64,000 bases of DNA, taken from positions 2,144,001-2,208,000 of the forward strand of contig CBDCFN010000016.1 of NCBI GenBank assembly GCA_965216315.1, read 5' to 3'. Under the pieces are notes generated by a model that saw nothing but the letters and a program-made list of their open reading frames with translations, had not been told where the DNA came from and did no database searches. This DNA comes from a bacterium (GTDB taxonomy: Bacteria; UBA10199; 2-02-FULL-50-16; JAJFLM01). The translations under genes and the position numbers were made by a program. The stretch's first letter is position 1; each line of letters starts with the position of its first letter. This document shows positions 15,172-49,474 of the stretch, in pieces.

Positions 15172-15180
15172 GCTACCTCC

Positions 15181-24825: not shown

Positions 24826-24869
24826 GTGCGCACACCTCTAATAGGGTGCACCCATGAGCTCCATTTCTG

Positions 24870-24896
24870 TTATCGGCGGGGATTCGCAAGAGTTGC
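24870..24896 (-). promoter_or_regulatory. Array promoter motif (sigma28-like)
   Basis: GCAACTC-ttgcgaatcccc-GCCGATAA. Confidence 0.85.
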
Positions 24897-24930
24897 GGAG
24901 AATTTGACGAAAATTCGTAAAATCTTGAAA

Positions 24931-24987
24931 GACCTCCCCTAGCCCTGAACCCCCTCTCCTTACGAAGGAGAGGGCTGGGGAGAGGTC
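24931..24987. repeat. REP-like palindromic element overlapping the stop of gene 7
   Basis: ccctctccttacgaaggagaggg hairpin within gacctcccctagccc.../gggctggggagaggtc; encodes the TSPQPSPS-stop end of gene 7. Confidence 0.75.
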
Positions 24988-26786: not shown

Positions 26787-26834
26787 ATCGGTTCATCTCC
26801 ATATGAACCATGCGCAGTATCCACTACGATCTAG

Positions 26835-26861
26835 TTATCGGCGACGCTTCGCAAGAGTTGC
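26835..26861 (-). promoter_or_regulatory. Array promoter motif (sigma28-like)
   Basis: GCAACTC-ttgcgaagcgtc-GCCGATAA. Confidence 0.85.
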
Positions 26862-26902
26862 GGAAAATTTGACGAAAATTCGCAAATTATCGAAAAACCG
26901 CC

Positions 26903-29569: not shown

Positions 29570-29637
29570 GACACTCCTCGACCCTCTCACACACACGCAT
29601 TCAGCCAACCCAAGGCTTTACACATACACAGCCTAAG

Positions 29638-29664
29638 TTATCGGCCTCGGCTTACGAAAGTTGC
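29638..29664 (-). promoter_or_regulatory. Array promoter motif (sigma28-like)
   Basis: GCAACTT-tcgtaagccgag-GCCGATAA. Confidence 0.85.
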
Positions 29665-29813
29665 GAAGGTCTATGCGAAAATTCACAAAATCGCCGGCTT
29701 GCACAGGGAGTCCGGCGCACCCAAAATCACATAACTTCTCTTAATTACTAAGTTTATTATCGTTTCGTTACCGGGCTTAGTCGCGGGAAATATTTGCGAA
29801 AATTAGGGGAAAT

Positions 29814-31727
29814 TCAATTATTCTGATCCGATTCCAGTGCCTGGAGCAGCATGTAGGCATAGGCGCGCTCAAAGGCCAGCAGCTCGCCTTCACCCGGTTT
29901 ATTATCCACATCATCGGGTCCTGCGGCCGGACCGTCGGCACCGAACATAAAGAACCGCTGCTGTTCCGCATACTGTGGGTCATCGATCTTGACGAGACGA
30001 CCATCAATGAGCTGAAAGACATTCTCTTCCAAGCTGCGTTCATAGATTTGTTGATCCAGTGCGGCCACCCGCTGTTCGAGACTCTTGAGCAAATAGCGCC
30101 GTAAGCGTTCACGACCATTCACCGTCTCGCCGTTTTCCGTAGCGGACACGAGGTCGCCGTCGGCACTGATGACTGATAGCAGCTTGCCTGTCGGCCGATC
30201 AAGCGAGCCGGTATAGGTATCGACGAGGTAGTAGCCATTATCGATCCCTTCAATCTCACCGAAGCCCCGTTCCAAATCCGCCTCTATCGCGTCCCAATCG
30301 ATCACCCAGTGATAATCGGTCGGAACCGCCGTCCGTCGTTCAACAACGGCTTGCCGTGATTCATCGGCTAAGCATTCTCCCGTCTCTTCGGCAACGGCGT
30401 GCTCAGCAAAACTTGCGATGGCGACATTTTCGACCATCGTGCCGAAGCCACGGGACTGACCGAGATATTCGTCGCGAATCCGGACAATTTCGCTTTTATA
30501 CCCGTCCCAATAACTGCCGCTGAATAGACTGAGACCCCCGTCTCCGGCCGTAACGAAGGTCCCCAAACCTCCGGCCACGACGGAACCCATCCGTTCCTGA
30601 TTATAGATGTCCTGACACAGGCGCATGAAATCCCAGTTGCGGCGCCCATGGTCGGTTCGGTGGATGACGCGACTCACGCCATAGGTCCCCACTCGCGAGA
30701 CAATGTCGATGATACCGATCCAACCAAGAATACGGGCCGCAAGCACCGATAATTTCATCAAGGCCGCTCCGCGGGTCAGACCGGCTAATTGCAAGCCACC
30801 ACGTCCCGTTCCCGTGGTCTTGAGTGCCTGAGCGAGGCTCGGATAACTCCGCGCCAGCACATAGGGAGTCGCCGCCAAGGTAAAGGTCGCTCCCTGGCGG
30901 AGCCACGGCTTGTCGCGCTCGCGCATCGCCACGCAATCCTCGTTGTCCGGATCATTGACCGCACAGACCCCATGGTCCGCGGCGGAGAGCAAACTACTCG
31001 CGATGAGCTGGAAGCCAAAGAAGGTCGGCATCGAACGCATCGCCGCCGTTGGACTGGTCTTGACCATTCCCGCTCGGTGCAAGATCGTGTGCGTTGCCAA
31101 GTAGGAACCAAAGGTTACGGGGGTCCGCAACTCCGAAGCCACTAGGCCTTCCTGGACGAGTTCCTCGACAAGCAGTTGGTCATAGGCAATGACCGCCGCG
31201 CCGACCCCAAGGAGTGGCACGGTGTAACCAATTCCTGTCGGTCCACTGGGACCGCCTTTCCCGCCGCTTCCACCCGGCCCGCCCGTGCGGGTGAACATCG
31301 GCTCGGCATCGCCGCGCAGGAACACGAACTGCGGCATCGTCACTCCTTCAGCGGTCACGGCTTGAGTGACGCGAAAGGTAACCGGAATCCCGCGCTCCAG
31401 CGCAAGGATGCGAACGGGCTCCACATAAGGCAGCATTTCAGCCGGGAGTTGGTCGACATGGGTCGCAAAATCGAGGTCGGTATTTAACGGGAGGGAAGTC
31501 CCCGCTAACATCCCCGGATCATAGGCATAAAATGATTCGAACGTGCTTCGCGGCCCGACGGAGGCATCCCACAGATTCGTGGAACCGTTCCAATCTGTCG
31601 TGTAGAAATCACTCGGATAGAGATCAAAAGATGTGTCACCGTAACAAACGGGGCCGATTTCGCCCGCGCCGCACACACCTGTTGGTTCAACTGAAGAAGT
31701 GGCTGCCGCCACACCATCTGCACCCAT
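29814..31727 (-). CDS. Array gene 9: family A protein (637 aa)
   Basis: TFRVTQAVTAEGVTMPQF, MPTFFGFQ, LGWIGIID, RLCQDIYNQE, WVIDW, DTYTG, EQQRFF; GGAGG RBS. Confidence 0.9.
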   Translation of the reverse strand: MGADGVAAATSSVEPTGVCGAGEIGPVCYGDTSFDLYPSDFYTTDWNGSTNLWDASVGPRSTFESFYAYDPGMLAGTSLPLNTDLDFATHVDQLPAEMLPYVEPVRILALERGIPVTFRVTQAVTAEGVTMPQFVFLRGDAEPMFTRTGGPGGSGGKGGPSGPTGIGYTVPLLGVGAAVIAYDQLLVEELVQEGLVASELRTPVTFGSYLATHTILHRAGMVKTSPTAAMRSMPTFFGFQLIASSLLSAADHGVCAVNDPDNEDCVAMRERDKPWLRQGATFTLAATPYVLARSYPSLAQALKTTGTGRGGLQLAGLTRGAALMKLSVLAARILGWIGIIDIVSRVGTYGVSRVIHRTDHGRRNWDFMRLCQDIYNQERMGSVVAGGLGTFVTAGDGGLSLFSGSYWDGYKSEIVRIRDEYLGQSRGFGTMVENVAIASFAEHAVAEETGECLADESRQAVVERRTAVPTDYHWVIDWDAIEADLERGFGEIEGIDNGYYLVDTYTGSLDRPTGKLLSVISADGDLVSATENGETVNGRERLRRYLLKSLEQRVAALDQQIYERSLEENVFQLIDGRLVKIDDPQYAEQQRFFMFGADGPAAGPDDVDNKPGEGELLAFERAYAYMLLQALESDQNN

Positions 31728-31774
31728 TACGCACCTCCGTTAGCCTTCCTCGAAACCCCTAGACCCAACTCGGA

Positions 31775-31854
31775 TTCCCCTCCCCTTACGAAGGGGAGGG
31801 TTAGGGAGAGGTCCGTCTCGACCTCCCCTGGCCCCTCCTTGGTAAGGAGGGGAA
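31775..31854. repeat. BIME-like pair of inverted REP-like palindromes
   Basis: ccctccccttacgaaggggagggttagggagaggt...gacctcccctggcccctccttggtaaggagggg; near-identical to 36229..36308. Confidence 0.8.
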
Positions 31855-31863
31855 TGAAATTAA

Positions 31864-33177
31864 TTACGGAACTAAGACGGGCGCCGCCCGTGGCACAAAA
31901 ACCGGCGCCACTTCGGGGACAACAACCGGTTGCGGGACCGTTATCGGTGCCGGAACCACCGTCACGCTCGGGGCGACAACACCGTTCACATTCACGGCAC
32001 TGACATTACCAGGAAGCGTGGCGCTGACCGGATTCGTTCCGCCCATCTGCATCATGCCGGTGAGCAGTGTGTCCGCCGTAAAGGTCTGGTGGGCACCGCT
32101 GTTAACCGCCACGGCATTGTTAATGCCGGTACTCATGGCCGACTCAAAAAAGCTCGTCCACTGGGCCTGATTCCAGCCCATGTCACCGCCGATGCCATTG
32201 TTCATAAAGGTCTGGGCCATCAGCGGCGCGACTTGTTGCGCAAATCCCTCGGCGGAATAACAGGAATCCGCGAGATGAGCCAACTCCGCCGGCAGGGGTA
32301 TATCCACGCCTGCGACGTTGGCCATCAAGACCGGACTCGTCATGGCGGAAAAACCAGCGGCTTGCGGCTCCGTCACCGGAGAAGAATCGCCGGCAGACAC
32401 AGGCTCACTGGCCCCATCACTCACCGGTGCCGTTTCACCCTGGGGAGCCACCGCGCCTTGGCCTTGAGCCGCTAAAAACTCAGCGAACATGCGGCCGGCT
32501 TGCTCGGGCGAAATACCGCCGCCGCCACCGTTGCCATCACCATCGCCATTCCCGCCACCGCGGCGGTTTTTCAGCCAATTTTTGAAGCTATGGTAAACAT
32601 CCGGACCGACGGTAAAGGCCGCCAGTAGGAAGAAAAATTCTACGAGGTGGTCTTGGGTCGGGGGACGCAGACGTTCCATCGATGAGGCGAGCGCATCACA
32701 TTGTTGATCCGACAGACCCGTCGGACATTCGCCATCGAACCAATGCAGAGGATTGTACCAGCTTTCACCGCCCCGAATCGTGCGAATGATCCCTTCACGA
32801 ATCGCCGGTTGATCGGCCTTGATGCACAGGGTCCCGGCACGGCCACCGAAGGCGGATAGGGAGACACGATCTTGAGACATGTTAGGAAAACCGCGGACGG
32901 CGTCGGCGGCATCATGGTCGAAAGTCGCCCCATGTGGACCGGAATCGGCAATCTCGTAGTAGCCCTGTCGCGAGTCGCAAGAACGTAAAGTTTCGCCGAT
33001 ATAATCGGCCCAGGGCTGGTCGCCGCTGGTGATAGTCGGGTCGGGAACGATCACGCCACCTTGCGTAAAAACCGCTCCGGGTTTATCTTCCGTGGCTCCA
33101 TAGGCCGTTCCCGGATTGGCTCGACACAGGCCGTTATGCCCCTCTAGATTTGACGCACCATAAAGATCGCATCCCAT
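31864..33177 (-). CDS. Array gene 10: family B protein (437 aa), six-Cys domain, TM, Pro/Val tail
   Basis: MGCDLYGAS (TAAGGAG RBS), GLCRANPGTAYG, GYYEIADSGP, CIKADQP, EFFFLLAAFTVGPD. Confidence 0.92.
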   Translation of the reverse strand: MGCDLYGASNLEGHNGLCRANPGTAYGATEDKPGAVFTQGGVIVPDPTITSGDQPWADYIGETLRSCDSRQGYYEIADSGPHGATFDHDAADAVRGFPNMSQDRVSLSAFGGRAGTLCIKADQPAIREGIIRTIRGGESWYNPLHWFDGECPTGLSDQQCDALASSMERLRPPTQDHLVEFFFLLAAFTVGPDVYHSFKNWLKNRRGGGNGDGDGNGGGGGISPEQAGRMFAEFLAAQGQGAVAPQGETAPVSDGASEPVSAGDSSPVTEPQAAGFSAMTSPVLMANVAGVDIPLPAELAHLADSCYSAEGFAQQVAPLMAQTFMNNGIGGDMGWNQAQWTSFFESAMSTGINNAVAVNSGAHQTFTADTLLTGMMQMGGTNPVSATLPGNVSAVNVNGVVAPSVTVVPAPITVPQPVVVPEVAPVFVPRAAPVLVP

Positions 33178-33299
33178 ATACAACTCCTTACGCAACGGGC
33201 GCCCAAACGCCCATGTTATACACTACACGCTGTCTAAACTAGGTGCTGAGTTCCATGCACAGCACACGACACTTTTAAACACACGCTTACTCATAGGCA

Positions 33300-33326
33300 T
33301 TATCGGTGTCGATTTGCGAAAGTTGC
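33300..33326 (-). promoter_or_regulatory. Array promoter motif (sigma28-like)
   Basis: GCAACTT-tcgcaaatcgac-ACCGATAA. Confidence 0.85.
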
Positions 33327-33433
33327 GGTAAATTCGCAAGGGGCTGACGAAAATTAGAAAAACCGTCCCAAAATTGGCAAGAAACAGGCTCTAGGGGGCC
33401 CTCTCAACCCCCCAGGCCTGCAATTAGAAGTGC

Positions 33434-34756
33434 TTATAAGGGCACGGGAACCGGCGCCATTCGCGGCACCACGACGGGAGCCACGCGCGGCGTAACAACC
33501 GGCGCGACGCGCGGAACCACCACCGGGGCCGGAACCGCCGTTGGGGCGGGCGTCGGGATGGCCGCCGGATTCGCGGCCCGGACCCGACCGGGAACGGTCG
33601 CGGCGACCGAACTGACCCCGCCGAGCTGCATCATCCCGTCAAAGAGCGTATCGGCGGTCCGCGTCGTGCCGGCGGGTGCCGCCGTGGAAGCAGCCGCGTT
33701 ATTGATGCCGCTCGTCAGCGCGGATTGAAAGACACGGGTCCACTGGGCCTGATTCCAGCCCAGCTCACGACCAATGCCATTACGCATGGCCAATTGGGCA
33801 AAGATCGGTGCCGCTGCCTGGGCAAATCCCTCAGGAGTGTAAGAAACATCGGCCAAATGAGCCATCTCGGCAGGCAAGGCCATTTCAACCCCAGCCACTC
33901 GCGCCGTCACGCCGGAAACCGCCGTAAAAGTCGCAACCGGTGCCTCGGAAGCTGGGGTCTCCTCACCGGCCGGGGCCGCTTCGCCGGCTCCCTCCGCTTG
34001 GGGCGCGGCGTCAGCTTGGCCGGGAGCCGCGTGCATCGCAGCCAGGGCGCGGCCGAGCTGTTCCGGTGTCATCTCGATGTTGCCACCGCCACCGCCACTG
34101 CCTCCATTACCATCGCCATTGCCGCCATTGCGGCGGCTTTGGATCCATCTTTTCAGGGCGTGGTAGACATCCGGGCCAATCGTGAAGGCCGCGATCAAGA
34201 AGAAAAACTCGGTGAGATGGTCCTGCTGCGGAGGACGCAAATGTTCCATCGACGTCGCCAAGGCCTCACATTGTTGGTCGGAGAGTCCCGTCGGACATTC
34301 CCCGACAAACCAGCGCGCCGGTGAATAGTTCACATACCAGGGCCGGTTCCCGCGAATATGGCGGATGATTCCCTCACGTACCGCTGGTTGATCGGCGCGG
34401 AGACACAGGGTTCCGGGTCGGCCCGCGTGAGCGGAGAAAGACGCCCGATCTTGCGACATATTGGGGAAAGTTCTGACCACATCGGCAGAGGTATGATTGA
34501 AGGTCGCACCGTTGGGTCCTGAATCGGCAATTTCATAGTACCCTTGACGTGCGTCACAGGATCTCAGGCTCTCGCCGTGAAAGGCGCTCCACGGCTGGTC
34601 GTTAGCAGGCCGGGTCGGATCGGGAACGATGACCCCAGCTTGCGTCATAACGGCGCCGGGGCGACCGTCTCTAGGTCCGTAAGCCGTGCCCGGATTAGCG
34701 CGGCACAGACCGGGCTGCCCTTCCAAATTAGACGCACCATACAGATCGCAAGTCAT
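33434..34756 (-). CDS. Array gene 11: family B protein (440 aa, 1 Lys)
   Basis: MTCDLYGAS...; same conserved domain; tail has three PRxAPV repeats. Confidence 0.92.
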   Translation of the reverse strand: MTCDLYGASNLEGQPGLCRANPGTAYGPRDGRPGAVMTQAGVIVPDPTRPANDQPWSAFHGESLRSCDARQGYYEIADSGPNGATFNHTSADVVRTFPNMSQDRASFSAHAGRPGTLCLRADQPAVREGIIRHIRGNRPWYVNYSPARWFVGECPTGLSDQQCEALATSMEHLRPPQQDHLTEFFFLIAAFTIGPDVYHALKRWIQSRRNGGNGDGNGGSGGGGGNIEMTPEQLGRALAAMHAAPGQADAAPQAEGAGEAAPAGEETPASEAPVATFTAVSGVTARVAGVEMALPAEMAHLADVSYTPEGFAQAAAPIFAQLAMRNGIGRELGWNQAQWTRVFQSALTSGINNAAASTAAPAGTTRTADTLFDGMMQLGGVSSVAATVPGRVRAANPAAIPTPAPTAVPAPVVVPRVAPVVTPRVAPVVVPRMAPVPVPL

Positions 34757-34762
34757 AATCGG

Positions 34763-34800
34763 CTCCTTTTGCCGTCAACGAGGTCGTTGACTAAAAGGAG
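34763..34800 (-). promoter_or_regulatory. mRNA hairpin sequestering the Shine-Dalgarno of gene 11
   Basis: mRNA CUCCUUUU-A-GUCAACG-ACCU-CGUUGAC-GGC-AAAAGGAG; the 3' arm is the RBS 6 nt before the ATG at 34756. Confidence 0.7.
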
Positions 34801-34855
34801 GCACTGCCTGGCTTAGGCCTGTTTGATTGATTTGGATAAGGTTTACCCGCGTCAT
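34775..34855 (-). CDS. Candidate 26-aa leader peptide MTRVNLIQINQTGLSQAVPPFSQRPR
   Basis: GGAGG 6 nt before the ATG; lies between the promoter and gene 11; stop falls inside the SD-sequestering hairpin. Confidence 0.55.
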   Translation of the reverse strand: MTRVNLIQINQTGLSQAVPPFSQRPR

Positions 34856-34900
34856 AGTGTGCCTCCGGTTACGGAAGTCCACCATAACAACCCAATGTGG

Positions 34901-34927
34901 TTATCGGCATGGCCTTGCGAAAGTTGC
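34901..34927 (-). promoter_or_regulatory. Array promoter motif (sigma28-like)
   Basis: GCAACTT-tcgcaaggccat-GCCGATAA. Confidence 0.85.
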
Positions 34928-34969
34928 GGGGAATTCGCAAAAGGCTGACGAAAATTGGGAACCGTTGTC

Positions 34970-35074
34970 TCCCCCTTTGTAAAGGGGGACTAAGGGGGAT
35001 TTAAGAGACGTCACGCAAATCCGTCTCTCGGGGTAAATTAAATCCCTCCTAACCTCCCTTTACAAAGGGAGGGA
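34970..35074. repeat. BIME-like pair of inverted REP-like palindromes (variant)
   Basis: tccccctttgtaaagggggactaagggggattt ... aaatccctcctaacctccctttacaaagggaggga. Confidence 0.75.
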
Positions 35075-35100
35075 GCGCGAGTGCTGCAAGACGGGGCATT

Positions 35101-36090
35101 TTAAGGTATCGCCGGCACCAAACTCGGCTTGACGACCGGCACCGGCGCGCCCTTCGGGACAACCGGCGGCGCTGGAACGACCGGAACGGGAGGCGTCGCG
35201 ACAGGGGCTTTAGCCCCCTTGGCACCGGGCGTTGCTTTCGCTACGGGACTCTTGCTTCCATTCTGCAATTCAGCGTCAACGAAGCTATCAGCGGTAAATG
35301 GCTGGGCACTCGCGGGCTGCGCATTGGGTTGGACCTCCGGCTGAGGCGCGGTCTCGCCCTTGGCAGCCGCCGCCGCAGCCATCACCTGCGCCAACTGTTC
35401 CGGCGTCATTTCGATGTTCCCGTTCCCCCCGCCGGGACCACCGCCCTTGTCTCCCCCACCCCGATTTTTCCACCAATTCTTAAGTCCATGATAGATATCG
35501 GGACCGATGGTGAAAGCCGCGATCAAAAAGAAGAACTCCATCAGATGATTTTGCTGCGGGGGGCGCAGGGTTGACATCGAGTGGGCCAGGGCGTGGCATT
35601 GTTGATCATCAAGATCCTCGGGGCAGTCCCCGTCAAACCACGCCAAGGGGTTCCACCAGTCCTCCTTGCCCCAGAGCTTATAGATCAGGCCCTCGCGAAT
35701 CGCCGGTTGATCCGCCTTGACGCAGAGGGTCCCCGGCTTGCCACCAAAGGCGGATAAGGACACGCGGTCCTGCGACATGTTAGGAAATTTCCGGATCACA
35801 TCGGCCGACTTATGATCAAAGGTCGCGCCGTTGGGACCTGAGTCGGCAATCTCGTAGTAACCCGACCTAGAATCACAAGAACGCAGGCTCTCACCGTGAT
35901 AGGCCTCCCAGGGCTGGTCGTTCTTCGCCCGCGTCGGATCCGGGACAATGGTCCCGCTCTGGGTCATCACCGCGCCGGGTATCTTTTTGTTGTCGGAATT
36001 CTTTTGTTCGCCGTAGGCCGTACCGGGATTGGCGCGGCAGAGTCCTGGCTGTCCGGGAAGATCGGAAGCACCGTAGAGATCACATCCCAT
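35101..36090 (-). CDS. Array gene 12: family B protein (329 aa, Lys-rich)
   Basis: MGCDLYGAS...; same conserved domain; short Pro/Val/Lys tail. Confidence 0.92.
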   Translation of the reverse strand: MGCDLYGASDLPGQPGLCRANPGTAYGEQKNSDNKKIPGAVMTQSGTIVPDPTRAKNDQPWEAYHGESLRSCDSRSGYYEIADSGPNGATFDHKSADVIRKFPNMSQDRVSLSAFGGKPGTLCVKADQPAIREGLIYKLWGKEDWWNPLAWFDGDCPEDLDDQQCHALAHSMSTLRPPQQNHLMEFFFLIAAFTIGPDIYHGLKNWWKNRGGGDKGGGPGGGNGNIEMTPEQLAQVMAAAAAAKGETAPQPEVQPNAQPASAQPFTADSFVDAELQNGSKSPVAKATPGAKGAKAPVATPPVPVVPAPPVVPKGAPVPVVKPSLVPAIP

Positions 36091-36160
36091 TGTATTTCTC
36101 CTAGTTAAAGGGGTCCCAAGCCCTTAGTTAGTCGAAATACGCACCTAGACGTGTATCTAG

Positions 36161-36187
36161 TTATCGGTCCGGGTTTGCGAAAGTTGC
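36161..36187 (-). promoter_or_regulatory. Array promoter motif (sigma28-like)
   Basis: GCAACTT-tcgcaaacccgg-ACCGATAA. Confidence 0.85.
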
Positions 36188-36228
36188 GGGAAATTTGCAA
36201 GAAGTTGTCGAAAATTCGGAAAAATGGG

Positions 36229-36308
36229 TTCCCTCCCCTTACTTAAGGGGAGGGTTAGGGAGAGGTCTTTCTCGACCTCCCCTAGCCCCTCCTTCGTAAG
36301 GAGGGGAA
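36229..36308. repeat. BIME-like pair of inverted REP-like palindromes
   Basis: ccctccccttacttaaggggagggttagggagaggt...gacctcccctagcccctccttcgtaaggagggg. Confidence 0.8.
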
Positions 36309-36318
36309 ATACAATTAA

Positions 36319-37422
36319 CTACGGAACCACCGGCACCGGAGCCGCCCGCGGCACGAAGACCGGAGCCCTGACTGCAAAGGGTCGAGGGGCTGCAACGATG
36401 GGGACAGGCGGAGCGATTGTGGTCGGCTTGACTCCTGCCTTGCCGGCAGGCAGGCCCTTCGCGACCGGGACCTGACCCGCTGTCGTGGAACGGATGGCCT
36501 TGGCGCCACCATACTGCAACATCCCATGGATCAGACTATTGGCAACAAAGGTCTTGGGCTCGGTTGCCTGGGGCGCCTTGGCGGGTTCACCTTGCGCGGC
36601 AGCCACTCCCGCTAAAATTTGGCCGAGCTGTTCAAACGTGATGCTGTCGCCGCCACCACCACCATTACCTTTGCCGTCGCCATCACCACCGTTACGTTTA
36701 CTCTGAATCCAGCGCTTTAGGGCATGGTAGACATCAGGGCCGATCGTAAAAGCCGCCAGCAGGAAAAAGAACTCCACGAAGTGGTTCTGGCTCGGCGGCC
36801 GCAGGTTTTCCATCGAAGTCGCGAGGGCCGTGCACTGCTTATCCGTCAGTCCTTTTGGGCACTCACCTGCATCCCCCATAAACAGGCGCAAGGGCGTATA
36901 ACGGACATACCAGGGCATATCCCCATTAATCTTGCGAATAATCCCCTCGCGTATCGACGGCTGATCGGCCTTGATACACAGCGTCCCGGCCCGGCCGGCA
37001 TGCGCGGAAAAGAACACGCGTCCCTGCGACATATTAGGGAATTTGCGGACGACGTTGGCCGAGTGCTTATTAAACGTCGCGCCTTTCGGACCGGAATCGG
37101 CAATTTCATAATAACCGCGGCGCGAATCGCACGACCACAGCTTCTCACCGAAAAATTTGCTCCAAGGTTGTTTATTGTGGGGAAGCTTGGGATCGGGGAC
37201 GATCGTCCCGGTTCCGGTAATGACAGCACCTGTGCGACCCTTTTTCGGTCCGTAGGCCGTTCCGGGATTGGCGCGACACAGGCCACTGGGCTTGCGGACA
37301 CGGGCCGCCTTATTCGGGGATGAAACGACTTTCCCGGTTGCGTCGAGATATTGACCTTTGCGGTTCACACGCGGAACCGTGCGCATGATCGGTGATGCAC
37401 CGTACAAATTACAACTTGCCAT
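36319..37422 (-). CDS. Array gene 13: family B protein (367 aa, Lys-rich twin of gene 11)
   Basis: MASCNLYGAS plus a basic insertion of about 30 aa before GLCRANPGTAYG; shares SAHAGR and HALKRWIQS with gene 11. Confidence 0.92.
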   Translation of the reverse strand: MASCNLYGASPIMRTVPRVNRKGQYLDATGKVVSSPNKAARVRKPSGLCRANPGTAYGPKKGRTGAVITGTGTIVPDPKLPHNKQPWSKFFGEKLWSCDSRRGYYEIADSGPKGATFNKHSANVVRKFPNMSQGRVFFSAHAGRAGTLCIKADQPSIREGIIRKINGDMPWYVRYTPLRLFMGDAGECPKGLTDKQCTALATSMENLRPPSQNHFVEFFFLLAAFTIGPDVYHALKRWIQSKRNGGDGDGKGNGGGGGDSITFEQLGQILAGVAAAQGEPAKAPQATEPKTFVANSLIHGMLQYGGAKAIRSTTAGQVPVAKGLPAGKAGVKPTTIAPPVPIVAAPRPFAVRAPVFVPRAAPVPVVP

Positions 37423-37482
37423 GAGTAGACTCCTTACTCATCCGTCCACCTCAAGAATGAATAAGAGTGCCTATCTCCCCAG

Positions 37483-37509
37483 TTATCGGTTCGCATCTGC
37501 GAATGTTGC
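37483..37509 (-). promoter_or_regulatory. Array promoter motif (sigma28-like)
   Basis: GCAACAT-tcgcagatgcga-ACCGATAA. Confidence 0.8.
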
Positions 37510-37584
37510 GGAAAATTCGCAAAGGCTTAGCGAGATTTCGAAACTATGGAAATACTAAGTGAAATCAGTGTGTTACATCACGCT

Positions 37585-40305
37585 CTATTGATACAGAATG
37601 TTCTGCATCTCTTGAAAACGCGCCTCATCAAAAACAAAATTATTTCCATGAGATCCTCCACGCAAGAACGTCGACGAGGATGAGGATGAATGGCAACCGC
37701 TAGGACAGGGATTAGAATTCGGCTGCGGACCCGTCATGTCGAAGCGAATGTCTTTAAAGTCGTCATCTTTGGATTTGAAATCCTTGCTGACCGTGAAATC
37801 GATCGATTCGACGAATTTCTCCGGACCTTTGGCCTTGAGGACCTGGCGCAGCTGCTCCAAAAAGAGAATTTGGGCGCGGCGGATTTCGCCCTCCGGCCGC
37901 GGCCGCCCAACCTGTTTGCCGCCGGCAGCGGTAACGCGCGCGCCGCGAAAGAACTTCCGCTGCTCTTCCGTGTACTCCGGATTGCCCGCAGCATTAAACT
38001 TAGGCGCGAGCTTCATCATCACGTGGCCGGTGTGTGTCACGGTCGGGTCCAGCGTAATCATTTGCGGCTCACCGGTTTGAGGATCGATTTTCTTTTCACC
38101 CGTCTCAGGGTCCACAGCCGGCAAAGTATCCCGCATGATGAGCGTGTAATTCTTGGCCTGTTCATTCCAAGCAGCCTCAATCTTGGTCGTTAACTCCGTA
38201 CCTTCCTTGCGCATCATCAGATGGATGACGCCGTCCTTCGTCCGTTTGATTTCGATGTGAATCCCGTCATTAAAAGCGACTTCACCGTAACTATCGTAAA
38301 GAATGGAGAGGGGAAATTTGCGAACACCGGCACTCGTCTTAATAACGACTTCATCCTGATCGACGCCGCTCGGTGACTTGGTCTGATGGATTTCGACGGA
38401 AACACCGAGTCCTACTTCAGCCATGCGATGGTAGAGATCGGCATATTTTTTGCGAATAAAGGTCGTCAGGTGTGTTTCTAAATCACGGCGGCCTTTAAAC
38501 ATTTTTTCAAGGTAGTTGGAAACCGCTTGGATATCCGGCTGCTTATTTGCATAGAGCGCCCGTATGTCGGCACCCCGTTGCACATACGCCTTGTCATCGG
38601 TCGCCGCGATCAAATCAATGACCTTAAAGGTCCCACTCATATCGTTCTGTTTAACGAAGTCCTGGAGAATGGATTCGACGGTATTGTAATCGATGAAATA
38701 ATCTTTACCGGTAATCGCCCGCGTCTCGGCATCCGCTTGGCGCATCCCTTCCCAACTCGCGGGAAAGGCGACGTTCTTAACGAACTGATTCGGAAAGGTG
38801 ATCCCCGCGCCTTCCAGCCATTGATTGTAGACCTTGGATATCTTGGCATTAGCCTCACTGCCGCCGGTCACCAGACCTTTGACACAAATCGACCACTTCT
38901 TGATGCTGGGAAACCACGAGTCATTGATGCTCTTGCCGTAGACCTCATTAAACAACGCCTCATTCAGCGAGTAATCGGCATTGCGAAACGCCGGCGACCA
39001 AATTTGTTCGCCGATGCCCAGGCCCAATTCAAAAGACAGCGGGACGCCATAAGCCAACGACGCGCCTTCAATCAACAAACCACCGCCGCGCGCCAGCCAA
39101 CCGTAGCTTGAATTGCGCATGATTGACGTGCCCAGCGATCGATAGCCGAGCCGTTGGCCCTGCGTCTTGGCGAGCGTCGACGCCGCGGCCGCGCGTACCG
39201 CATAACCTTTAAACAACTTCGAATACAGGGCCGCCGGCAAGCCGGCACTGATCAGTAAGTTACCCGTACCGCCCTTCTTGAGCGTTTCGATCCCTCCCCA
39301 ACCGCCTCCGATCCAGTGGGTCAATTCACTCGTAATCCCGGACACAACGACGAGTTCACCGCCGACCTGCTTGAATTGCGTCCAACTAAACGCCGGAATC
39401 TCCGGTGCACTCGGCATCAACATGCGGGGAAAGGTGTTGTTGTAAGTATGACGCAGCAAGGAGTATTCGGCACCCCCGAGCGCGATATTTGAAAACACGC
39501 GCTGATAAGGGTCATCGATACCGAGGGCCTGGGATTGTTGATCAACCGCCCAGTAGGCCGCCGCATAAGGGACAGCAACCCCTAAACCCTTAAAAATAAC
39601 TCGCGGGGTATTATGGTAAAAATTTTGCACTAGCTTCGGGGACAATGCAGCCACACCCCCAGCGAGCACGGTCGAACTCGACATGCCAAAAGAATTGGTA
39701 TCGAGCTTCGGTCGTTGCTTGATTTTCTGACCATACTCGTGCGGATGGACGACGGCATAGACTGGCGTCGGTCCGCCGGATGCGACTGGACGCGTGTAGA
39801 ACTCTTCATTCGCACCGGGCTTATAGTCGGGATACTCATGCGAGGGCGCGCGATGGAGCAAGACGATCGGGCGCCCGCCCTTGACGTACTTGACGCTCAT
39901 GAACCAACCGACCTTGTATTCCTGCGGCGGGCGCAATGAAGCCGGCATTTCATCATAAATGGAATTGACGGGAATGCGCTTGTCATCGGTAAACGTCTTG
40001 CGCAAGTACTGATACTCGTCGATCTCTTCCGCGGCGAGAAAATTGGCACCGAAGTTGAGGACGCGATCCGATTTTTGATCGATATCATAAACGATGGGCA
40101 GGCCGGATGACGTATCCGTTTCGTTTTTCCTGCTAAAATCCGCCGCAAAAAAGACCGGCTCGCTCGTCGGCCCAAAAATCAGTGCGGGGGGAACCGCCAC
40201 GCCCTGTCCTTCCTTGATAGGAGGCGTTACCATCATCTCCCCATGGTCCGCATAGAATTGCGGCTTGGTGTAGCGGCAGACGGATATTGTCGGATCACAA
40301 GTCAT
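37585..40305 (-). CDS. Array gene 14: divergent family A protein (906 aa, Lys-rich)
   Basis: MTCDPTISVC; AVDQQSQALGIDDPYQ vs MVDYSIAKLDLPEPYQ (gene 6); ADYSLNEALFNEV vs PHYRLLQAAFDSV; YTEEQRKFFRG vs LSTEQRKFVFG. Confidence 0.82.
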   Translation of the reverse strand: MTCDPTISVCRYTKPQFYADHGEMMVTPPIKEGQGVAVPPALIFGPTSEPVFFAADFSRKNETDTSSGLPIVYDIDQKSDRVLNFGANFLAAEEIDEYQYLRKTFTDDKRIPVNSIYDEMPASLRPPQEYKVGWFMSVKYVKGGRPIVLLHRAPSHEYPDYKPGANEEFYTRPVASGGPTPVYAVVHPHEYGQKIKQRPKLDTNSFGMSSSTVLAGGVAALSPKLVQNFYHNTPRVIFKGLGVAVPYAAAYWAVDQQSQALGIDDPYQRVFSNIALGGAEYSLLRHTYNNTFPRMLMPSAPEIPAFSWTQFKQVGGELVVVSGITSELTHWIGGGWGGIETLKKGGTGNLLISAGLPAALYSKLFKGYAVRAAAASTLAKTQGQRLGYRSLGTSIMRNSSYGWLARGGGLLIEGASLAYGVPLSFELGLGIGEQIWSPAFRNADYSLNEALFNEVYGKSINDSWFPSIKKWSICVKGLVTGGSEANAKISKVYNQWLEGAGITFPNQFVKNVAFPASWEGMRQADAETRAITGKDYFIDYNTVESILQDFVKQNDMSGTFKVIDLIAATDDKAYVQRGADIRALYANKQPDIQAVSNYLEKMFKGRRDLETHLTTFIRKKYADLYHRMAEVGLGVSVEIHQTKSPSGVDQDEVVIKTSAGVRKFPLSILYDSYGEVAFNDGIHIEIKRTKDGVIHLMMRKEGTELTTKIEAAWNEQAKNYTLIMRDTLPAVDPETGEKKIDPQTGEPQMITLDPTVTHTGHVMMKLAPKFNAAGNPEYTEEQRKFFRGARVTAAGGKQVGRPRPEGEIRRAQILFLEQLRQVLKAKGPEKFVESIDFTVSKDFKSKDDDFKDIRFDMTGPQPNSNPCPSGCHSSSSSSTFLRGGSHGNNFVFDEARFQEMQNILYQ

Positions 40306-40332
40306 ATCAGAGCACCTTCCTAAGTAACGAGA

Positions 40333-41583
40333 TTAGAGGGCCGGCACCATGACCGGTGGCGTCACCGTCACGGGGGCAATGCGTATGCTAAACGTCGGCG
40401 CGGCAACCACCCGACCACCAACCGTGCGCGCCCCGGCTCCGGCAAAGACCTTGAGGCCACTTCCCTGGATCGTAAACGCCACCGCATCACTCGGCGAAAA
40501 TTGATCGCTCTTCACGTTGACGAAGTCGACCAGGCCCGCATGACCTTGCGCAATCCCGACGGCTGCGAGCGCGGATTGTTGTGTTGAGGTCGAGGCAGTG
40601 ACTTCCGTCAGTTGAACGGTGTCCATTGCAGCTCCGTTGGTCTCCATACGCCAGGACTTTCCGGCGATCGCGTGCAAGGCATCGGCAACCTTAAAAGCCG
40701 GGTGATCGGGAACCAATACCAGCGGCGGATTCAACGCCTCGTCCGAGATCGCATACCACTGGCCATTGATCTGGGTGTAGGCGCCTACGAGGGTCATCGA
40801 CGATTGCGATACGGGAGTCAGTGCGGAAATAAACTCACTGCTCGTCTCCTGCGAGAGCTGCTGCTTCGCGTCCATGACGCCATGATGATAGGCCCGAATA
40901 ATATCGTCTACCGAGCCGCCACCACCATTCCCGGAACCGTTGCCGTCACCATCGCCTTTCCCCTTTTTAAAGCGATTTTTAATCCCGTGATAGATATCGG
41001 GACCGATCGTAAAGGCGGCGATCAGAAAGAAGAACTCCATCAGATGGTTTTGTGACGGCGGCCGTAACTGCGCCATTGACGAGGCCAGGGCATCACATTG
41101 TTGACCACTCAGCCCCTTCGGGCAATCGCCGTCAAACCAATGAAAAGGATTGTACCAATCCTCGCCCCCGCGAATCGTGCGGATAATACCTTCACGAATC
41201 GAGGGTTGATCGGCCTTGATGCATAAAGTCCCGGCTTTCCCGCCAAAAGCAGACAGCATGACCCGATCTTTAGACATGTTGGGAAATTTACGGACGACGT
41301 TGGCGGATTTCTTGTCGAAGGTTGCACCCTTCGGGCCCGAATCGGCGATTTCGTAGTAACCATGTTTAGGATCGCAGGCTCGCAAGGTCTCACCGATGAA
41401 AGCTCCCCAAGGCTGATCTTCCGGCTTGACGCCCTGCAACGTCGGGTCGGGGACGATAGCTCCTTTTTGAGTAAAAACAGCCCCTGGTTTGTCGTCTTTG
41501 GGGCCGTAAGCGGTACCGGGATTGGCTCGACAGAGCCCTTTGTGTCCTTGAAGGTTGGACGCACCGTAGAGTTCGCAACCCAT
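40333..41583 (-). CDS. Array gene 15: family B protein (416 aa), divergent C-terminal half
   Basis: Start MGCELYGAS (GAGGAGGAG RBS); shares IIRTIRGGE.WYNP.HWFDG with gene 10. Confidence 0.92.
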   Translation of the reverse strand: MGCELYGASNLQGHKGLCRANPGTAYGPKDDKPGAVFTQKGAIVPDPTLQGVKPEDQPWGAFIGETLRACDPKHGYYEIADSGPKGATFDKKSANVVRKFPNMSKDRVMLSAFGGKAGTLCIKADQPSIREGIIRTIRGGEDWYNPFHWFDGDCPKGLSGQQCDALASSMAQLRPPSQNHLMEFFFLIAAFTIGPDIYHGIKNRFKKGKGDGDGNGSGNGGGGSVDDIIRAYHHGVMDAKQQLSQETSSEFISALTPVSQSSMTLVGAYTQINGQWYAISDEALNPPLVLVPDHPAFKVADALHAIAGKSWRMETNGAAMDTVQLTEVTASTSTQQSALAAVGIAQGHAGLVDFVNVKSDQFSPSDAVAFTIQGSGLKVFAGAGARTVGGRVVAAPTFSIRIAPVTVTPPVMVPAL

Positions 41584-41650
41584 GATCACTCCTCCTCGCC
41601 TCGGAGCGCGCATGGCTGTAGAGGCGGATTAGGCCCCTAATCTATTAGCA

Positions 41651-41677
41651 TTATCGGTATCGGAAGGTGAAAGTTGC
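41651..41677 (-). promoter_or_regulatory. Array promoter motif (sigma28-like)
   Basis: GCAACTT-tcaccttccgat-ACCGATAA. Confidence 0.85.
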
Positions 41678-41730
41678 GGAAAATTCGCAAAGGTCTGACG
41701 AAAATTCGTAAACTTTTGAAATTAAGGGAT

Positions 41731-42510
41731 TTAGCGCCCCCGCCGACGGCGCAGCGGATCTTCACGATCAATCGCGTGACGACTACGTAATTGATTTTCC
41801 GTAAGGCGATCATAGTGCTCACCGACCCGACGAATGAAATCCGCGTTGATCTCGCGGGCGTCGCGGCGCAGCTCGCGGTCCCCTGTCTCCCACTGTTCGA
41901 TCACCCAATCGCGAAACGACAAACGGGCTTCCAACGGTTGGGCGCGCATCTCGGGCCGCACGTCTTCAATCAAATGCTCAACGGCCAACAAGCGTTGCTC
42001 ACGCGCACGTTGCTCGGGCGTCCGATGATCCACGTTAGGGCCACCCTGCCGTTGCCCGACAGGTGTTGTGTGGGACGTGTTGCCGCGCGCCAGGATTCTA
42101 CGGGCGGCTAATAAGGCAATGTTCCCCAGGACCCCCACGGCCAACACCCAAGGCCACGGCGTATCCAACCATGAGGTTGATTGCTGCGGCGGCACGTAGC
42201 TCGACGATCCCGGATGTCCCACTCCGGGTTGCAAGGGTTGATTCGGTTGCGCCGGCGGCGTCGGCTGTAGATGCGTCACCGTCGGATTCGGGGTGGTCGA
42301 ATTGCCCGCGGTATTTGTCACCGGTTGTGGCGAAGCGGCATCCGTCACGACGGGGTTAGGCTGCGGGTTCGGCGGCGTTGGGTTTGGGGTCGTCGGATTC
42401 GGTGCCGTTGGGTTTGGCTCCGGCGTCGCACAGGGCACAATCGCCTGCGCTCCGGGACTCCAACGCACTTGCTGGCCGGCTCTGTCAAAACATTGGTTTT
42501 CGGGCGGCAT
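41731..42510 (-). CDS. Array gene 16: family C protein (259 aa), Pro/Thr/Asn stalk, TM, EARLS module, no Lys
   Basis: Start MPPENQCFD by homology to gene 17; TM WPWVLAVGVLGNIALLAARR; QPLEARLS; ends RRRRGR. Confidence 0.88.
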   Translation of the reverse strand: MPPENQCFDRAGQQVRWSPGAQAIVPCATPEPNPTAPNPTTPNPTPPNPQPNPVVTDAASPQPVTNTAGNSTTPNPTVTHLQPTPPAQPNQPLQPGVGHPGSSSYVPPQQSTSWLDTPWPWVLAVGVLGNIALLAARRILARGNTSHTTPVGQRQGGPNVDHRTPEQRAREQRLLAVEHLIEDVRPEMRAQPLEARLSFRDWVIEQWETGDRELRRDAREINADFIRRVGEHYDRLTENQLRSRHAIDREDPLRRRRGR

Positions 42511-42524
42511 ATCGTTCCCTCTCT

Positions 42525-43304
42525 TTAACGAGCGCGATCCCGGCGGCGCTCTTCGTCCCGGCGTTCGGTTGGTAAATGCTCCGCCATCCATGGGTGACTG
42601 GCGCGGCGGCTTTCCAGTACGGACCGAATCACTTCGGACGTCACCGGATCGGTCTCGGCCCGACCATCACGCAGCAAAGGTTGGCGCCGCCAAGTACTCA
42701 GAATATCAGCGCGCAATTGCGGGAGACTTTCACTGATCGCGAGTCGCGCCTCGGCCGGTAAAGATTCATAGTTAGGGATTTCGGCGCGAATCATCCGGTC
42801 CAAAGCCGCATCGCGCTCGCGCGCCATCTCTTCAATCGATCGTTCGACGACCGGTTCAGGGTTCGTCGCAACAACCACTTCATTGTCGGCTCCGTTGGTA
42901 GCTCCATTCGGCGACGCATTGCGCCGGGATAAAAAGTGGCGGGCAGTAAAAAGTCCGATATTCCCAAACAACAAGGCGCCCACCGGCCAGTACCAATTAT
43001 TGGCAAGCCAATCCAGCGTCGAACCGTTTGAGCCGGATGAATTATTCGAAGGGGAATCGGAAGGCGTATCGGTCGACGTTGCCGTACCGGTATAAGGCAC
43101 GAGTCGTCCCTGCGCGGCATCCCAGATGACCATCTGGCCATTCTGCATAAAGGGCTGGTGGGTCGCCGGAGTCGTCGTATTGGTATCCGTACCGGCATCG
43201 GCCGTTGAACCGGCATCCGTCGTGCAGGCCACGATACTCTGAGTCGCTTGGTCCCAACGAACCTGTCGACCACCTTGATCAAAACAAAGGGCATCTGGGG
43301 GCAT
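42525..43304 (-). CDS. Array gene 17: family C protein (259 aa), Thr/Ser stalk, TM, EARLS module, no Lys
   Basis: MPPDALCFD (GAAGGA RBS; alternative ATG 43322); TM WYWPVGALLFGNIGLFTARH; LPAEARLA, WRRQPLLRDG. Confidence 0.88.
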   Translation of the reverse strand: MPPDALCFDQGGRQVRWDQATQSIVACTTDAGSTADAGTDTNTTTPATHQPFMQNGQMVIWDAAQGRLVPYTGTATSTDTPSDSPSNNSSGSNGSTLDWLANNWYWPVGALLFGNIGLFTARHFLSRRNASPNGATNGADNEVVVATNPEPVVERSIEEMARERDAALDRMIRAEIPNYESLPAEARLAISESLPQLRADILSTWRRQPLLRDGRAETDPVTSEVIRSVLESRRASHPWMAEHLPTERRDEERRRDRAR

Positions 43305-43327
43305 GATAAATTCCTTCTCCATCTAGG

Positions 43328-43354
43328 TTATCGGCAGGAATTTGCGGAAGTTTC
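43328..43354 (-). promoter_or_regulatory. Array promoter motif (sigma28-like)
   Basis: GAAACTT-ccgcaaattcct-GCCGATAA. Confidence 0.8.
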
Positions 43355-43392
43355 GCAAAATTTATCAATAATTTGCAGCTTTTGAGAAGATG

Positions 43393-45831: not shown

Positions 45832-45874
45832 CGTTCAACTCCTATCGCAACTTTAGCCTCCCCACCCTAAATTA

Positions 45875-45901
45875 TTATCGCCGACTTTACCGAAAGGTTT
45901 C
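45875..45901 (-). promoter_or_regulatory. Array promoter motif (variant)
   Basis: GAAACCT-ttcggtaaagtc-GGCGATAA. Confidence 0.65.
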
Positions 45902-45907
45902 GCTGCT

Positions 45908-48900: not shown

Positions 48901-49303
48901 TAAACTCCTGCTCCGTCAGCGCATTACTTCCACTCGTCGCCGAGCTGTGAATTTGCGTATAACCGGGCAGGCCGGTCCAATTAGGAATTAAATTCGCCGG
49001 GCTATACTGGCCGTTTTCAATCGCATGCATCTGGGCGTACACACGTTCCAGTTCTGCTGACGTCGGATTGCGTTCCCCGGGGAGTAAGGTGTAGTTGGGA
49101 TCGGGTCGGAGATAGGCCTTGCCATCGGTCCCGATCACAACTCGTTGGGCGCCCACCAGCGAGCGGTCTCGGGTCGGGTCGCCGAGAGGAACATGCAACG
49201 GTACGCTACAGGTCGTACTGCGCGTCGCCGTCCCTTGACAGGCGGGAACCGGCTGTACGGAAATGCCGCTATTGTTGTATGAAACTATCGGTGGTGGCGT
49301 CAA
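45908..49303 (-). CDS. Array gene 19: TM + degenerate Clp-type AAA+ domain + family C module (1131 aa, TTG start)
   Basis: HVILGGPSGSGKG, VHLTEADRFLEAG, IERKAPDLLRRTELVEV, YERVDITDGA; C-terminal ~100 aa closely match gene 17. Confidence 0.85.
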   Translation of the reverse strand: MTPPPIVSYNNSGISVQPVPACQGTATRSTTCSVPLHVPLGDPTRDRSLVGAQRVVIGTDGKAYLRPDPNYTLLPGERNPTSAELERVYAQMHAIENGQYSPANLIPNWTGLPGYTQIHSSATSGSNALTEQEFNRVVAIGINSLRLPADSRATAIQTAVSSVVSGDRKTATARAVATTISQLAETHLARALGGTENPLSSTDLQQALLRHGATGPTGGVQAVIGRSRDGETGQPAWIVFSDGRSGAVCSAQGIGGSQPLGMSLRDDQILTLLELGGIETGEYCMSPQRSGVVRLLSSFSQGGNANRIRNLISTLTGIAPNSIRADHQIVASDITREGTYNPYFTNAETLQIANSLRTFIQPQLAVDDARTDQLGMQRTGLDAQLEAAGLAKYSLYFMVGLSATMLFQTYAMAKQQGWTRGLDSFLSNTRTALKATWGRLRHRDGRAVWQHWRNIFQDSSPIIRDRTADFRTRSTPLSPTGREILRGFNRGSMPHVILGGPSGSGKGHGVTTAAIAAVQGNSGVQAFEGRNVRYVQISASRVVQQAGSWMNGAQTIFFRTLDGLAGEHPVIVHLTEADRFLEAGMGPGNQPLNLIAQMYEILEGKDPRYENLHFIFDSTRFDEIERKAPDLLRRTELVEVVPMTPQEVRGVFDHAIRDRLGGAEGRINRLRYERVDITDGAKDALTALGASERGAPPSAHINLMDAVVTNMTQGHDRSDIQITAEDVVRVVSERTGHSVESVQRELTQLLEGGIENNRRIQDRILDAFYEAYREPAGGRIDPLNPQGEHRGGYRDPGSGPRADAPVAPSAQPGGGNGANGSGNGATPVVSNGANGSAGRLEGDRGVVQEIVQTAAQDLLRTRTNGNSVTFEPGAIEHLASIYHGRGRELGTLADQQREITTILTRAADRSIENGGGGIVTPRDLTLEFRAHEAVENFISEHRTDASFAQLWDANPSATDRETLRKRFADAYIDAVLTSGGDRLTSTRSAEVISAHVQALGGNGGAHVVAASSHTPVVTPTPEPAPTPELSVEDRLAARERRLDQLIRAEIPNYDSLPAEARLSITESLPRLRADIIGRWRSQPLLRDGRSFEDPIPRDFIRASLESARPHHTWMDTHLPTERRRDERRRGR

Positions 49304-49384
49304 TTCCCTCTCCTTTGGCTTAGAACCCCTTCTAATGCCGATTGAAAGACCTGGGTCTCCCGATTCTTTCTATTCTCTATTTAA

Positions 49385-49411: not shown

Positions 49412-49474
49412 TTCGAATCTTGACGAAGCTTCAAAAAAATTCCGCGACTTTGAAAAGAAGATAAAACTAAATAA

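Follow-up and report, generated by a model that had tools for sequence, protein, structure and literature searches.

ProW of Escherichia coli reportedly carries a periplasmic N-terminal tail of about 100 residues and is said to use an uncleaved reverse signal-anchor. ZAS anti-sigma factors and the TonB, TolA and RodZ proteins follow a plan of a conserved N-terminal part, one helix and a variable, Pro-rich C-terminal part. Tandem paralogs with a constant N-terminal part and divergent C-terminal parts are found in the polymorphic toxin and effector families, reportedly treated by Zhang et al. in 2012, and the chlamydial sigma-28 and Streptomyces WhiG regulons are examples of sigma-28-type regulons. 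Here we describe family B, five paralogous genes at 31864..41583 of a 64,000-nucleotide stretch of bacterial DNA (hereafter the window; positions 2,144,001 to 2,208,000 of contig CBDCFN010000016.1, assembly GCA_965216315.1, GTDB lineage UBA10199). The genes lie in an island of 22 same-strand genes (13525..57381, minus strand, 44 kb), in which only one AAA domain and the FHA domains of two proteins match known families. We tentatively favour the reading that family B proteins are N-out bitopic proteins with a disulfide-braced, non-enzymatic head of a new fold and a cytoplasmic tail, under sigma-28-like control and tied to the AAA and FHA proteins of the island.

Like ProW-type N-out proteins, family B proteins have no cleavable signal peptide, an N-terminal part predicted to lie outside, and basic residues after the helix. 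However, they are not homologous to ProW, and their head is about twice as long as the ProW tail, confidently folded in its model and putatively cysteine-braced, an arrangement that recurs in many proteins of the island. With the ZAS anti-sigma factors and TonB, TolA and RodZ they share the general plan, but not the details: the HxxxCxxC and CxxC motifs are missing, the head is modelled as an alpha/beta domain of 182 residues, and the helix lies at residues 181–229 rather than near the N-terminus as in TonB and TolA. No Pfam match to zf-HC2, RskA, TonB_C or TolA was found, even at E<=5, and the charges flanking the helix predict the orientation opposite to that of all these proteins. Unlike the polymorphic toxins, family B shows no toxin domain match, no immunity genes and no recent recombination.

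Five paralogs with a shared N-terminal domain had been claimed in the original prediction, and our analysis agrees. All five are open reading frames (ORFs) on the minus strand, encoding proteins of 329–440 aa with a common N-domain of about 185 aa; over the first 205 residues or so, the other four copies are 66–74% identical to B3 (73/73/66/74%), and full-length identity to B1 is 65% for B2, 63% for B3, 59% for B4 and 51% for B5. Each gene call rests on the ORF and a Shine-Dalgarno sequence. B1 (31864..33177, 437 aa) consists of the N-domain, a helix (32602-32637), a Gly hinge and a 232-aa tail ending in PVLVP. B2 (33434..34756, 440 aa, helix 34172-34207, end PVPVPL) is laid out like B1 and has in common with it a region of about 110 aa in the middle of the tail, with octad repeats ([VM]APVxxPR) near the end. 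B3 (35101..36090, 329 aa, helix 35500-35535) has the shortest tail of the five. B4 (36319..37422, 367 aa, helix 36736-36771) starts with MASC and has a basic insert of about 32 residues behind the first motif. B5 (40333..41583, 416 aa, helix 40999-41034, end VMVPAL) has a tail unrelated to the other four. The alignments contain all the motifs that had been quoted (C.LYGAS, GLCRANPGTAYG, GYYEIADSGP.GATF, FPNMS, ADQP..REG, CP..L...QC and EFFFL.AAFT.GPD.YH), as well as the six Cys, invariant among the five copies, the basic stretch, the G(N/D)G hinge and the non-polar ends PVLVP, PVPVPL, VPAIP, PVVP and VPAL.

The starts of these proteins deserve attention, as they lack a signal peptide. The ATG of each gene has a strong ribosome-binding site (AAGGAG, TAGGAG or GAGGAG) 5–8 nt upstream, in-frame stops occur 6–11 codons upstream of the starts, and the proteins begin with a hydrophilic stretch, mean hydropathy over 25 residues being -0.18 to -0.41. 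Given these three features, we consider the M-(G/T/AS)-C N-terminus genuine and not the product of a mis-called start, in line with the absence of a signal peptide reported before. The intergenic gaps of the array (130–340 bp) contain promoters and no genes, and no small immunity-like genes were found between the B copies among the ORFs of the window.

Relatives of family B are few. A word-indexed search of 5.8 billion proteins matched the window's five proteins only, no further copy was found in the genome, and a single-query search of 40 related genomes gave no match. An exhaustive search of 1.84 billion representatives with a five-sequence profile gave eight matches at E<=0.001: three window proteins, P0006, and the repeat proteins P0007, P0008, P0009 and P0010. 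On reading their sequences, we rejected P0007, P0009 and P0010 as spurious; P0008 (5308 aa, nine stretches) was put aside as presumably of the same kind. P0006 (331 aa, E 2.9e-22) is a true relative; used as a query it led to P0011, and a nine-sequence profile led to P0013. These three proteins come from short metagenome contigs and start with MSC or MTC. Scanning for related loci, we confirmed none of 32 pattern matches in genome contigs, and in metagenome contigs recovered only the 1.5-kb contig of P0006 itself. Among 93 genomes of the small phylum, a seven-sequence profile gave a match in one genome (G031), and BLAST and HMM searches on further loci, with a five-genome search, added an ortholog in a genome of the same taxonomic family (G001) and three tandem copies in another genome (G074). 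B-like genes are thus present in at least 4 of the 93 genomes, a lower bound since the first profile missed both G001 and G074. The comparisons below are based on 13 homologs, the five window copies and eight from elsewhere, which are related and hence not independent. In G074, two small minus-strand genes, by eye a PIN-type toxin and a small DNA-binding partner, lie between the first and second B-like paralogs (L036:16757-17472).

The cysteines of the head (positions 3, 18, 72, 123, 156 and 165 in B3 numbering) vary across these homologs in pairs. Their number is even in all 13, with six Cys in ten homologs and four in the other three. Joint loss of C156 and C165 is seen in G001 and in two of the G074 copies (G074_2 and G074_3), and loss of either one alone in no homolog; C3 and C18 are jointly absent in G031, which carries two other Cys instead. 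Such joint loss would be expected if the residues pair in disulfides, but not if they form a metal site, and no CxxC or HxxxC knuckles occur in the Cys spacing of the B heads. The genome has a homolog of VKOR-type disulfide oxidases (96 bits, above the cut-off), and no DsbB was found in it; given the VKOR homolog, a route to periplasmic disulfides exists. In the 13-sequence alignment of the head, C72 is the only invariant column, with C3, C18, G66, G120 and P178 conserved at 90% or more, and no His, Asp, Ser, Glu or Lys able to form a catalytic site is conserved across the 13 heads. The conserved columns therefore look like those of a structural or binding module, and do not suggest an enzyme.

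The head is followed by a hydrophobic segment, for which the window copies show a 12-residue core (FFFL[IL]AAFT[IV]GP) with Glu and Asp on its flanks. The segment starts at residue 181–218 and is contained within residues 181–229 across the homologs. At the same position, five of the eight homologs from elsewhere reach a Kyte-Doolittle maximum over 19 residues of 1.59–2.41 (G001 2.41, G074_1 2.02, P0011 1.92, P0013 1.75, G074_2 1.59); the five window copies reach 1.22–1.29. The segment is probably a membrane helix, marginal in the window copies, so that the single transmembrane segment originally predicted is upheld by its kept position and its strength in several homologs, but less clearly by the proteins for which it was proposed. 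Lys and Arg are more numerous in the 15 residues that follow the helix than in the 15 that precede it in 12 of the 13 homologs, and the net charge of the N-terminal flank is zero or negative in all 13. By the positive-inside rule, these flank charges would place the head outside and the tail inside. The FHA protein of the island (49563-52937), in which the FHA domain comes after the membrane helix, has a like flank pattern; an FHA domain must be cytoplasmic. An outer-side Cys domain with disulfides, as had been proposed, is hence indirectly supported by the paired Cys loss, the even counts, the charge asymmetry and the VKOR homolog.

Structure prediction gave a confident model of the head and no relatives for it. 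AlphaFold with five sequences produced a weak model (predicted local distance difference test, pLDDT, 65.6), for which fold searches returned the same generic rows as for the later one. With 13 sequences, the model of the B3 N-domain (residues 1-182, 35545-36090, minus strand) reached a pLDDT of 87.6 and a predicted template modelling score (pTM) of 0.80, all five models being at 83.5 or above. Its first half is beta-rich and its second half alpha/beta. Foldseek against PDB gave no match at E<=0.001 (best 0.67), and neither did a search of BFVD. The highest Z that VIA-align reached against 48,161 representative chains was 4.5 (ThyX, 79 residues, root-mean-square deviation 4.0), followed by a long tie of RNA recognition motif (RRM) and ferredoxin-like sandwiches covering residues ~73-182 only; according to the guidance of the tool, a Z below 8 may mean merely a common arrangement. 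The ring-building motif of the EscJ/PrgK type, an alpha-beta-beta-alpha-beta unit of periplasmic rings in secretion systems, scored Z 2.8–3.0 over 59–60 residues (1yj7 and 6rwx), a level shared by dozens of RRM and ferredoxin-like chains. In ESM Atlas the head reached at most 0.76, under the trust level of the tool. A three-copy complex prediction of the head scored 0.00 with controls not run, and speaks neither for nor against oligomers.

Sequence-based family searches were equally negative. For the five window proteins, Pfam at E<=0.1 gave no family save a 14-bit DUF4434 match in a tail, and with nine homologs its output at E<=5 was limited to three singletons, unrelated to one another. NCBIfam, PADLOC and PHROGs contained no family for family B. 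Searching PDB with the sequence profile gave nothing below E 0.05, the rows being a ZZ finger at 0.05 and single-chain variable fragment (scFv) linkers, which aligned to the Gly hinge; the AAA protein had no match in PDB by sequence either. The original prediction would have fallen with a match to a known cytoplasmic metal-binding family, and none was found by profile or fold search. The head thus has no detectable known relative and is a candidate new fold. In full-text searches of the literature we found no description of family B or of the island, which is weak evidence for their being unpublished; as they match no family, structure or described system, we rate both as new.

The head and the tails have evolved very differently. 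Between copies, the proportion of synonymous differences (pS) in the N-domain is 0.67–0.79, which is saturated, and that of nonsynonymous differences (pN) is 0.14–0.24, with omega at 0.05–0.17 where computable; in the tails pN is 0.29–0.58. Sliding nucleotide identity is mostly 50–80% in the N-domain but only about 30% along some stretches of the tails, and revealed no gene-conversion or near-identical tracts between copies. As synonymous sites are saturated and conversion tracts absent, the copies are old paralogs with diverged tails. The comparison of domain and tail that had been suggested hence points to strong constraint on the head and free divergence of the tails, and the tails appear to be those of diverged old duplicates and not polymorphic in the sense of a currently shuffling set. 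The tails are of low complexity; the Pro/Val C-terminus is kept in the G001 ortholog, which ends in PRMVPVL, and absent from the more distant homologs. A link of these ends to the S41 protease gene ctpA (5300-6550), suggested earlier as speculation, found no support: ctpA lies 25 kb off among housekeeping genes, and the C-termini of the B proteins are indeed non-polar but belong to tails predicted to be cytoplasmic, whereas CtpA by eye bears a signal peptide.

Each of the five genes has its own promoter-like module, GCAAC-N15/16-[GA]CCGATAA, on the minus strand: at 41651..41677 for B5, where TTGCGAA/TTTTCG repeats lie upstream, at 37483..37509 for B4, at 36161..36187 for B3, at 34901..34927 for B2 and at 33300..33326 for B1. 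A 19-nt motif upstream of B2 recurs before B1, B3 and one family-A gene (family A being another paralogous set of the island, see below), with four matches found and 0.02 expected. The pattern GCAA-N14-16-[GA]CCGATAA occurs 32 times in the 2.96-Mb genome; 11 of these sites are in the window, and ten of the 11 are upstream of island genes, namely B1–B5, three family-A genes, an 888/901-aa gene and a 363/370-aa gene. Both GCAAC and CCGATAA are invariant in these ten aligned promoters, with G or A preceding CCGATAA and the TTGCGAA/TTTTCG repeats found further upstream. The module is also present 74 nt upstream of the B gene of G001 and 56 nt upstream of one B gene of G074. A generic scan of the window for sigma-70 promoters and terminators gave results at chance level.

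The -10 part of the module agrees with that of sigma-28 promoters, given as GCCGATAA in one source (PMC12784957); the island promoters match GCCGATAA with CCGATAA in all ten. In Bdellovibrio bacteriovorus, according to Karunker et al. 2013 (PMC3627812), TTAAG-N16-CCGATA precedes 92 of 140 attack-phase promoters, many belonging to surface or uncharacterised genes. The likeness of the island to that FliA regulon lies in a CCGATA(A) -10 element 15–16 nt past a -35-like box, before many non-flagellar, lineage-specific envelope genes. In contrast, the island has GCAAC as its -35 element, no flagellin was found in the genome, its best FliA/WhiG-like sigma factor is below the family cut-off, and the promoters are predicted from sequence. 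Given the missing flagellin and the sub-threshold sigma factor, we call the promoter only sigma-28-like. Since the promoter is shared, the B proteins would be made together at one life-cycle stage.

The neighbourhood of the B genes recurs in other genomes. In the window, the AAA ATPase gene (45908..49303, minus strand, 1131 aa) lies in the same island, and its homologs are directly upstream of B homologs in both G001 and G031. The gene order in G001 is homologs of a 673-aa island protein, FHA proteins, an AAA protein, B, and four family-A genes; in G031 the B-like gene comes directly after the AAA homolog. AAA homologs are present in 7 of the 93 genomes of the phylum.

N-terminal cysteines are common to the island at large. 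Family A (13525-31727) comprises eight paralogs of 548, 799, 565, 657, 656, 608, 901 and 637 aa, and its proteins often start with C-x6-C, as in MCDSTIQSC and MTCDPTISVC. The start MTCDPTISVC is seen in the 906-aa protein as well, which is encoded by an orphan gene (37585..40305, minus strand) between B4 and B5 that starts 27 nt past the B5 stop. The distant B members P0011 (MSCGLDYQSC) and P0013 (MTCNADFQSC) share this start as well, and because it is found in both family A and distant B proteins, the N-terminal Cys pair seems a hallmark of the system and not of family B alone. Counting with a crude gene caller (22 calls in the island, 2386 in the rest of the genome), we found a Cys within residues 2–7 of 16 of the 22 island proteins and of 117 of the 2386 others (4.9%; Fisher p 1.7e-16), and at least two Cys in the first 32 residues of 16 of 22 and 216 of 2386, respectively (p 1.5e-12). 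Overall Cys content is 0.60% in the island and 1.17% in the genome, the island's Cys being concentrated at N-termini. An N-terminal Cys may therefore be a shared signature of island proteins. Homology of the B head to family A or to the 906-aa protein was considered and rejected (hhalign probability 0.1), and blastp likewise related the 906-aa protein to no member of family B.

These results fit a model in which each family B protein would span the membrane once, with an N-terminal head of about 185 aa on the outer side of the membrane and the tail in the cytoplasm. Two or three disulfides (C3-C18, C72-C123 and C156-C165), made by the VKOR-type oxidation system of the cell, would brace the head. 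After it would come the marginal membrane helix, basic residues, a Gly-rich hinge and a low-complexity tail ending in Pro/Val octad repeats. One head with differing tails would couple a shared contact outside to different cytoplasmic partners, for which the FHA and AAA proteins of the island are candidates, and the five genes would be separate transcription units on a promoter common to other island genes. Several points weigh against this model. Reverse signal-anchor translocation of an N-terminal domain of 185–220 aa is rare in bacteria, and the hydropathy maximum of the window copies is below the usual threshold of 1.6, so that membrane insertion is not assured; export of the head without a signal peptide and the marginal helix in this genome's copies are the main weak points. 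The proposed disulfide pairing derives from covariation alone, among homologs whose kinship means that 13 even counts are not 13 independent trials, and the start codon of the G031 gene is uncertain, which weakens the argument from joint loss of C3 and C18. As for regulation, the GCAAC element is unlike the TAAA/TTAAG type of sigma-28, and the best FliA/WhiG-like sigma candidate, at G000:C16:350679-351308, scores 133.5 bits against a family cut-off of 189.6.

The opposite topology, with a cytoplasmic, metal-binding Cys head and a periplasmic Pro/Val tail resembling the rods of TonB, TolA and RodZ or the outer parts of anti-sigma factors, appears to us rather unlikely. A protein without a signal peptide would by default keep its head in the cytoplasm, tails rich in Pro and Val with regular octad repeats would suit a rod, a plan of conserved N-terminal and variable C-terminal parts resembles that of membrane anti-sigma factors, and the genes belong to the regulon of an alternative sigma factor. 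Yet basic residues follow the helix instead of preceding it in 12 of 13 homologs, the Cys are lost pairwise with counts always even, neither CxxC nor HxxxCxxC is present, and the Pfam search for zf-HC2, RskA and TonB_C was negative; in addition, a single unpaired Cys in the tails of B1, the G001 ortholog and G074_1 fits a reducing compartment. It is highly improbable, in our view, that the N-terminal Cys is a processed nucleophile, as in self-processing enzymes of the Ntn type, or an acylation site. The idea draws on the position of this Cys, behind a variable leader of 1–5 residues in 12 of 13 homologs (MGC, MTC, MASC, MSGC, MSGNQC, MAGTDC, MSC), and on the excess of such Cys in the island. 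Ntn hydrolases are alpha-beta-beta-alpha sandwiches in which the first residue is the nucleophile, backed by a conserved oxyanion and base network. However, apart from Cys the 13 homologs show no conserved polar residue, the covariation of C3 with C18 is what a disulfide pair would give, and Foldseek and VIA listed no structure of an Ntn hydrolase, although one may have escaped these searches. As to acylation, bacterial lipoproteins differ in that the B Cys is at residue 3 or 4 after M-G, M-T or M-A-S, with no lipobox or hydrophobic leader.

The family might also consist of delivered proteins, the head being a trafficking or recognition module and the tails payloads exported by the island machinery to the surface or to another cell, although we judge this improbable. 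Tandem paralogs with conserved N-terminal and divergent C-terminal parts, linked to an AAA ATPase and FHA proteins, would suit such a role, and family A gave faint language-model leads to pore-forming domains in ESM Atlas (at most 0.83; TspB, RTX, colicin and glycine-zipper leads at 0.78–0.80, all under the trust level). The sigma-28-like regulon points the same way, as in Bdellovibrio (PMC3627812) such promoters drive attack-phase surface proteins. Against delivery, the low-complexity tails match no toxin or enzyme family, small immunity-like genes are missing between the copies, the divergence is old with no sign of cassette shuffling, the membrane helix lies mid-chain, and family scans identified no known secretion apparatus in the island.

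Other features of the island and its surroundings were noted. Family A proteins have a variable head with a Cys pair, a Gly/Pro-rich hinge, a Gly/Ala-rich hydrophobic region of about 300 aa and a helical C-terminal domain. Seven island genes have in common a C-terminal module ending in ...GR. A repeated module (LPAEARLS...W...PLLRDG) is likewise found in seven proteins, and most of them end in Arg-rich ...RRRGR or ...RRSGR; proteins with a module of this type are encoded at 19562-20674, 41731-43322, 43393-45831, 45908-49303, 49563-52937 and 53158-55242. The AAA homologs of G074 end in ...IGR. The 812-aa protein at 43393-45831 has an FHA domain (Pfam 3e-10) and, by eye, a transglutaminase-like Cys...His...Asp stretch (GVCNERG...HAW...DP) absent from the Pfam output; elsewhere in the genome (G000:C16:290848-292746) there is a paralog of the middle part of this protein. 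The 673-aa protein at 55360-57381 lacks a signal peptide, by eye resembles an outer-membrane beta-barrel in its middle, and ends in ...GGGLNF, with a terminal Phe as in barrel proteins; its homolog heads the syntenic island in G001. Divergently oriented beside the island is the gene of a large secreted protein with thrombospondin type 3 repeats (57890-61756, plus strand; signal peptide end ...AAWG.D.CDIF), and a neighbour of this kind recurs in all three genomes (also G001 L027:310-6586 and G074 L036:1-2849). As no tRNA was found in the window, no GC step is seen at the island and a syntenic island exists in G001, we rejected a recent import of the island as a mobile element. The window's own Tol system (TolQRA-TolB) is at 10126-13530, and 1768-3469 holds an MbnB/TglH/ChrH-family gene (Pfam 2.5e-101) with a DUF2063 gene behind it, the usual two-gene modification pair of the ribosomally synthesized and post-translationally modified peptide type, unrelated to the island.

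Within the array, B3 and B4 are each closely followed by an element rich in GGGAGG/CCCTCC hairpins (34956-35074 and 36243-36310, respectively). In metagenome contigs, the bins with these elements have a summed depth several-fold higher and many joints, as expected of a dispersed short repeat. A search for sequencing runs turned up four DNA-type sets of one study and no RNA set; contigs from the four include identical long pieces, and third-position variants are scattered on short, low-depth contigs.

Taken as a whole, the island could be an undescribed envelope system, a proposal that we regard as distinctly unlikely to hold in full. Proteins with a Cys pair in their first 30 residues or so would place large folded heads outside without Sec signals, for which they would need help from membrane FHA and AAA proteins encoded in the island; family B would provide a constant outer head and variable inner tails, and the system would be deployed at one life stage under a sigma factor like sigma-28 or WhiG, in a genome where no flagellin was found. 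As for family B itself, a head that is confidently modelled and for which no sequence or structure relative was found may represent a new fold and offers structural biologists a clean target. The family is one of at least three orphan families in the 44-kb island, whose common traits are a Cys pair at the extreme N-terminus, the absence of a signal peptide despite heads predicted to lie outside, and an alternative-sigma promoter. If the predicted topology is wrong, family B would be a new cytoplasmic metal-binding module. If it is true, a poorly known phylum would export sizeable folded domains by a route outside the textbook rules, which would open questions on the biogenesis of membrane proteins and on stage-specific surface biology.

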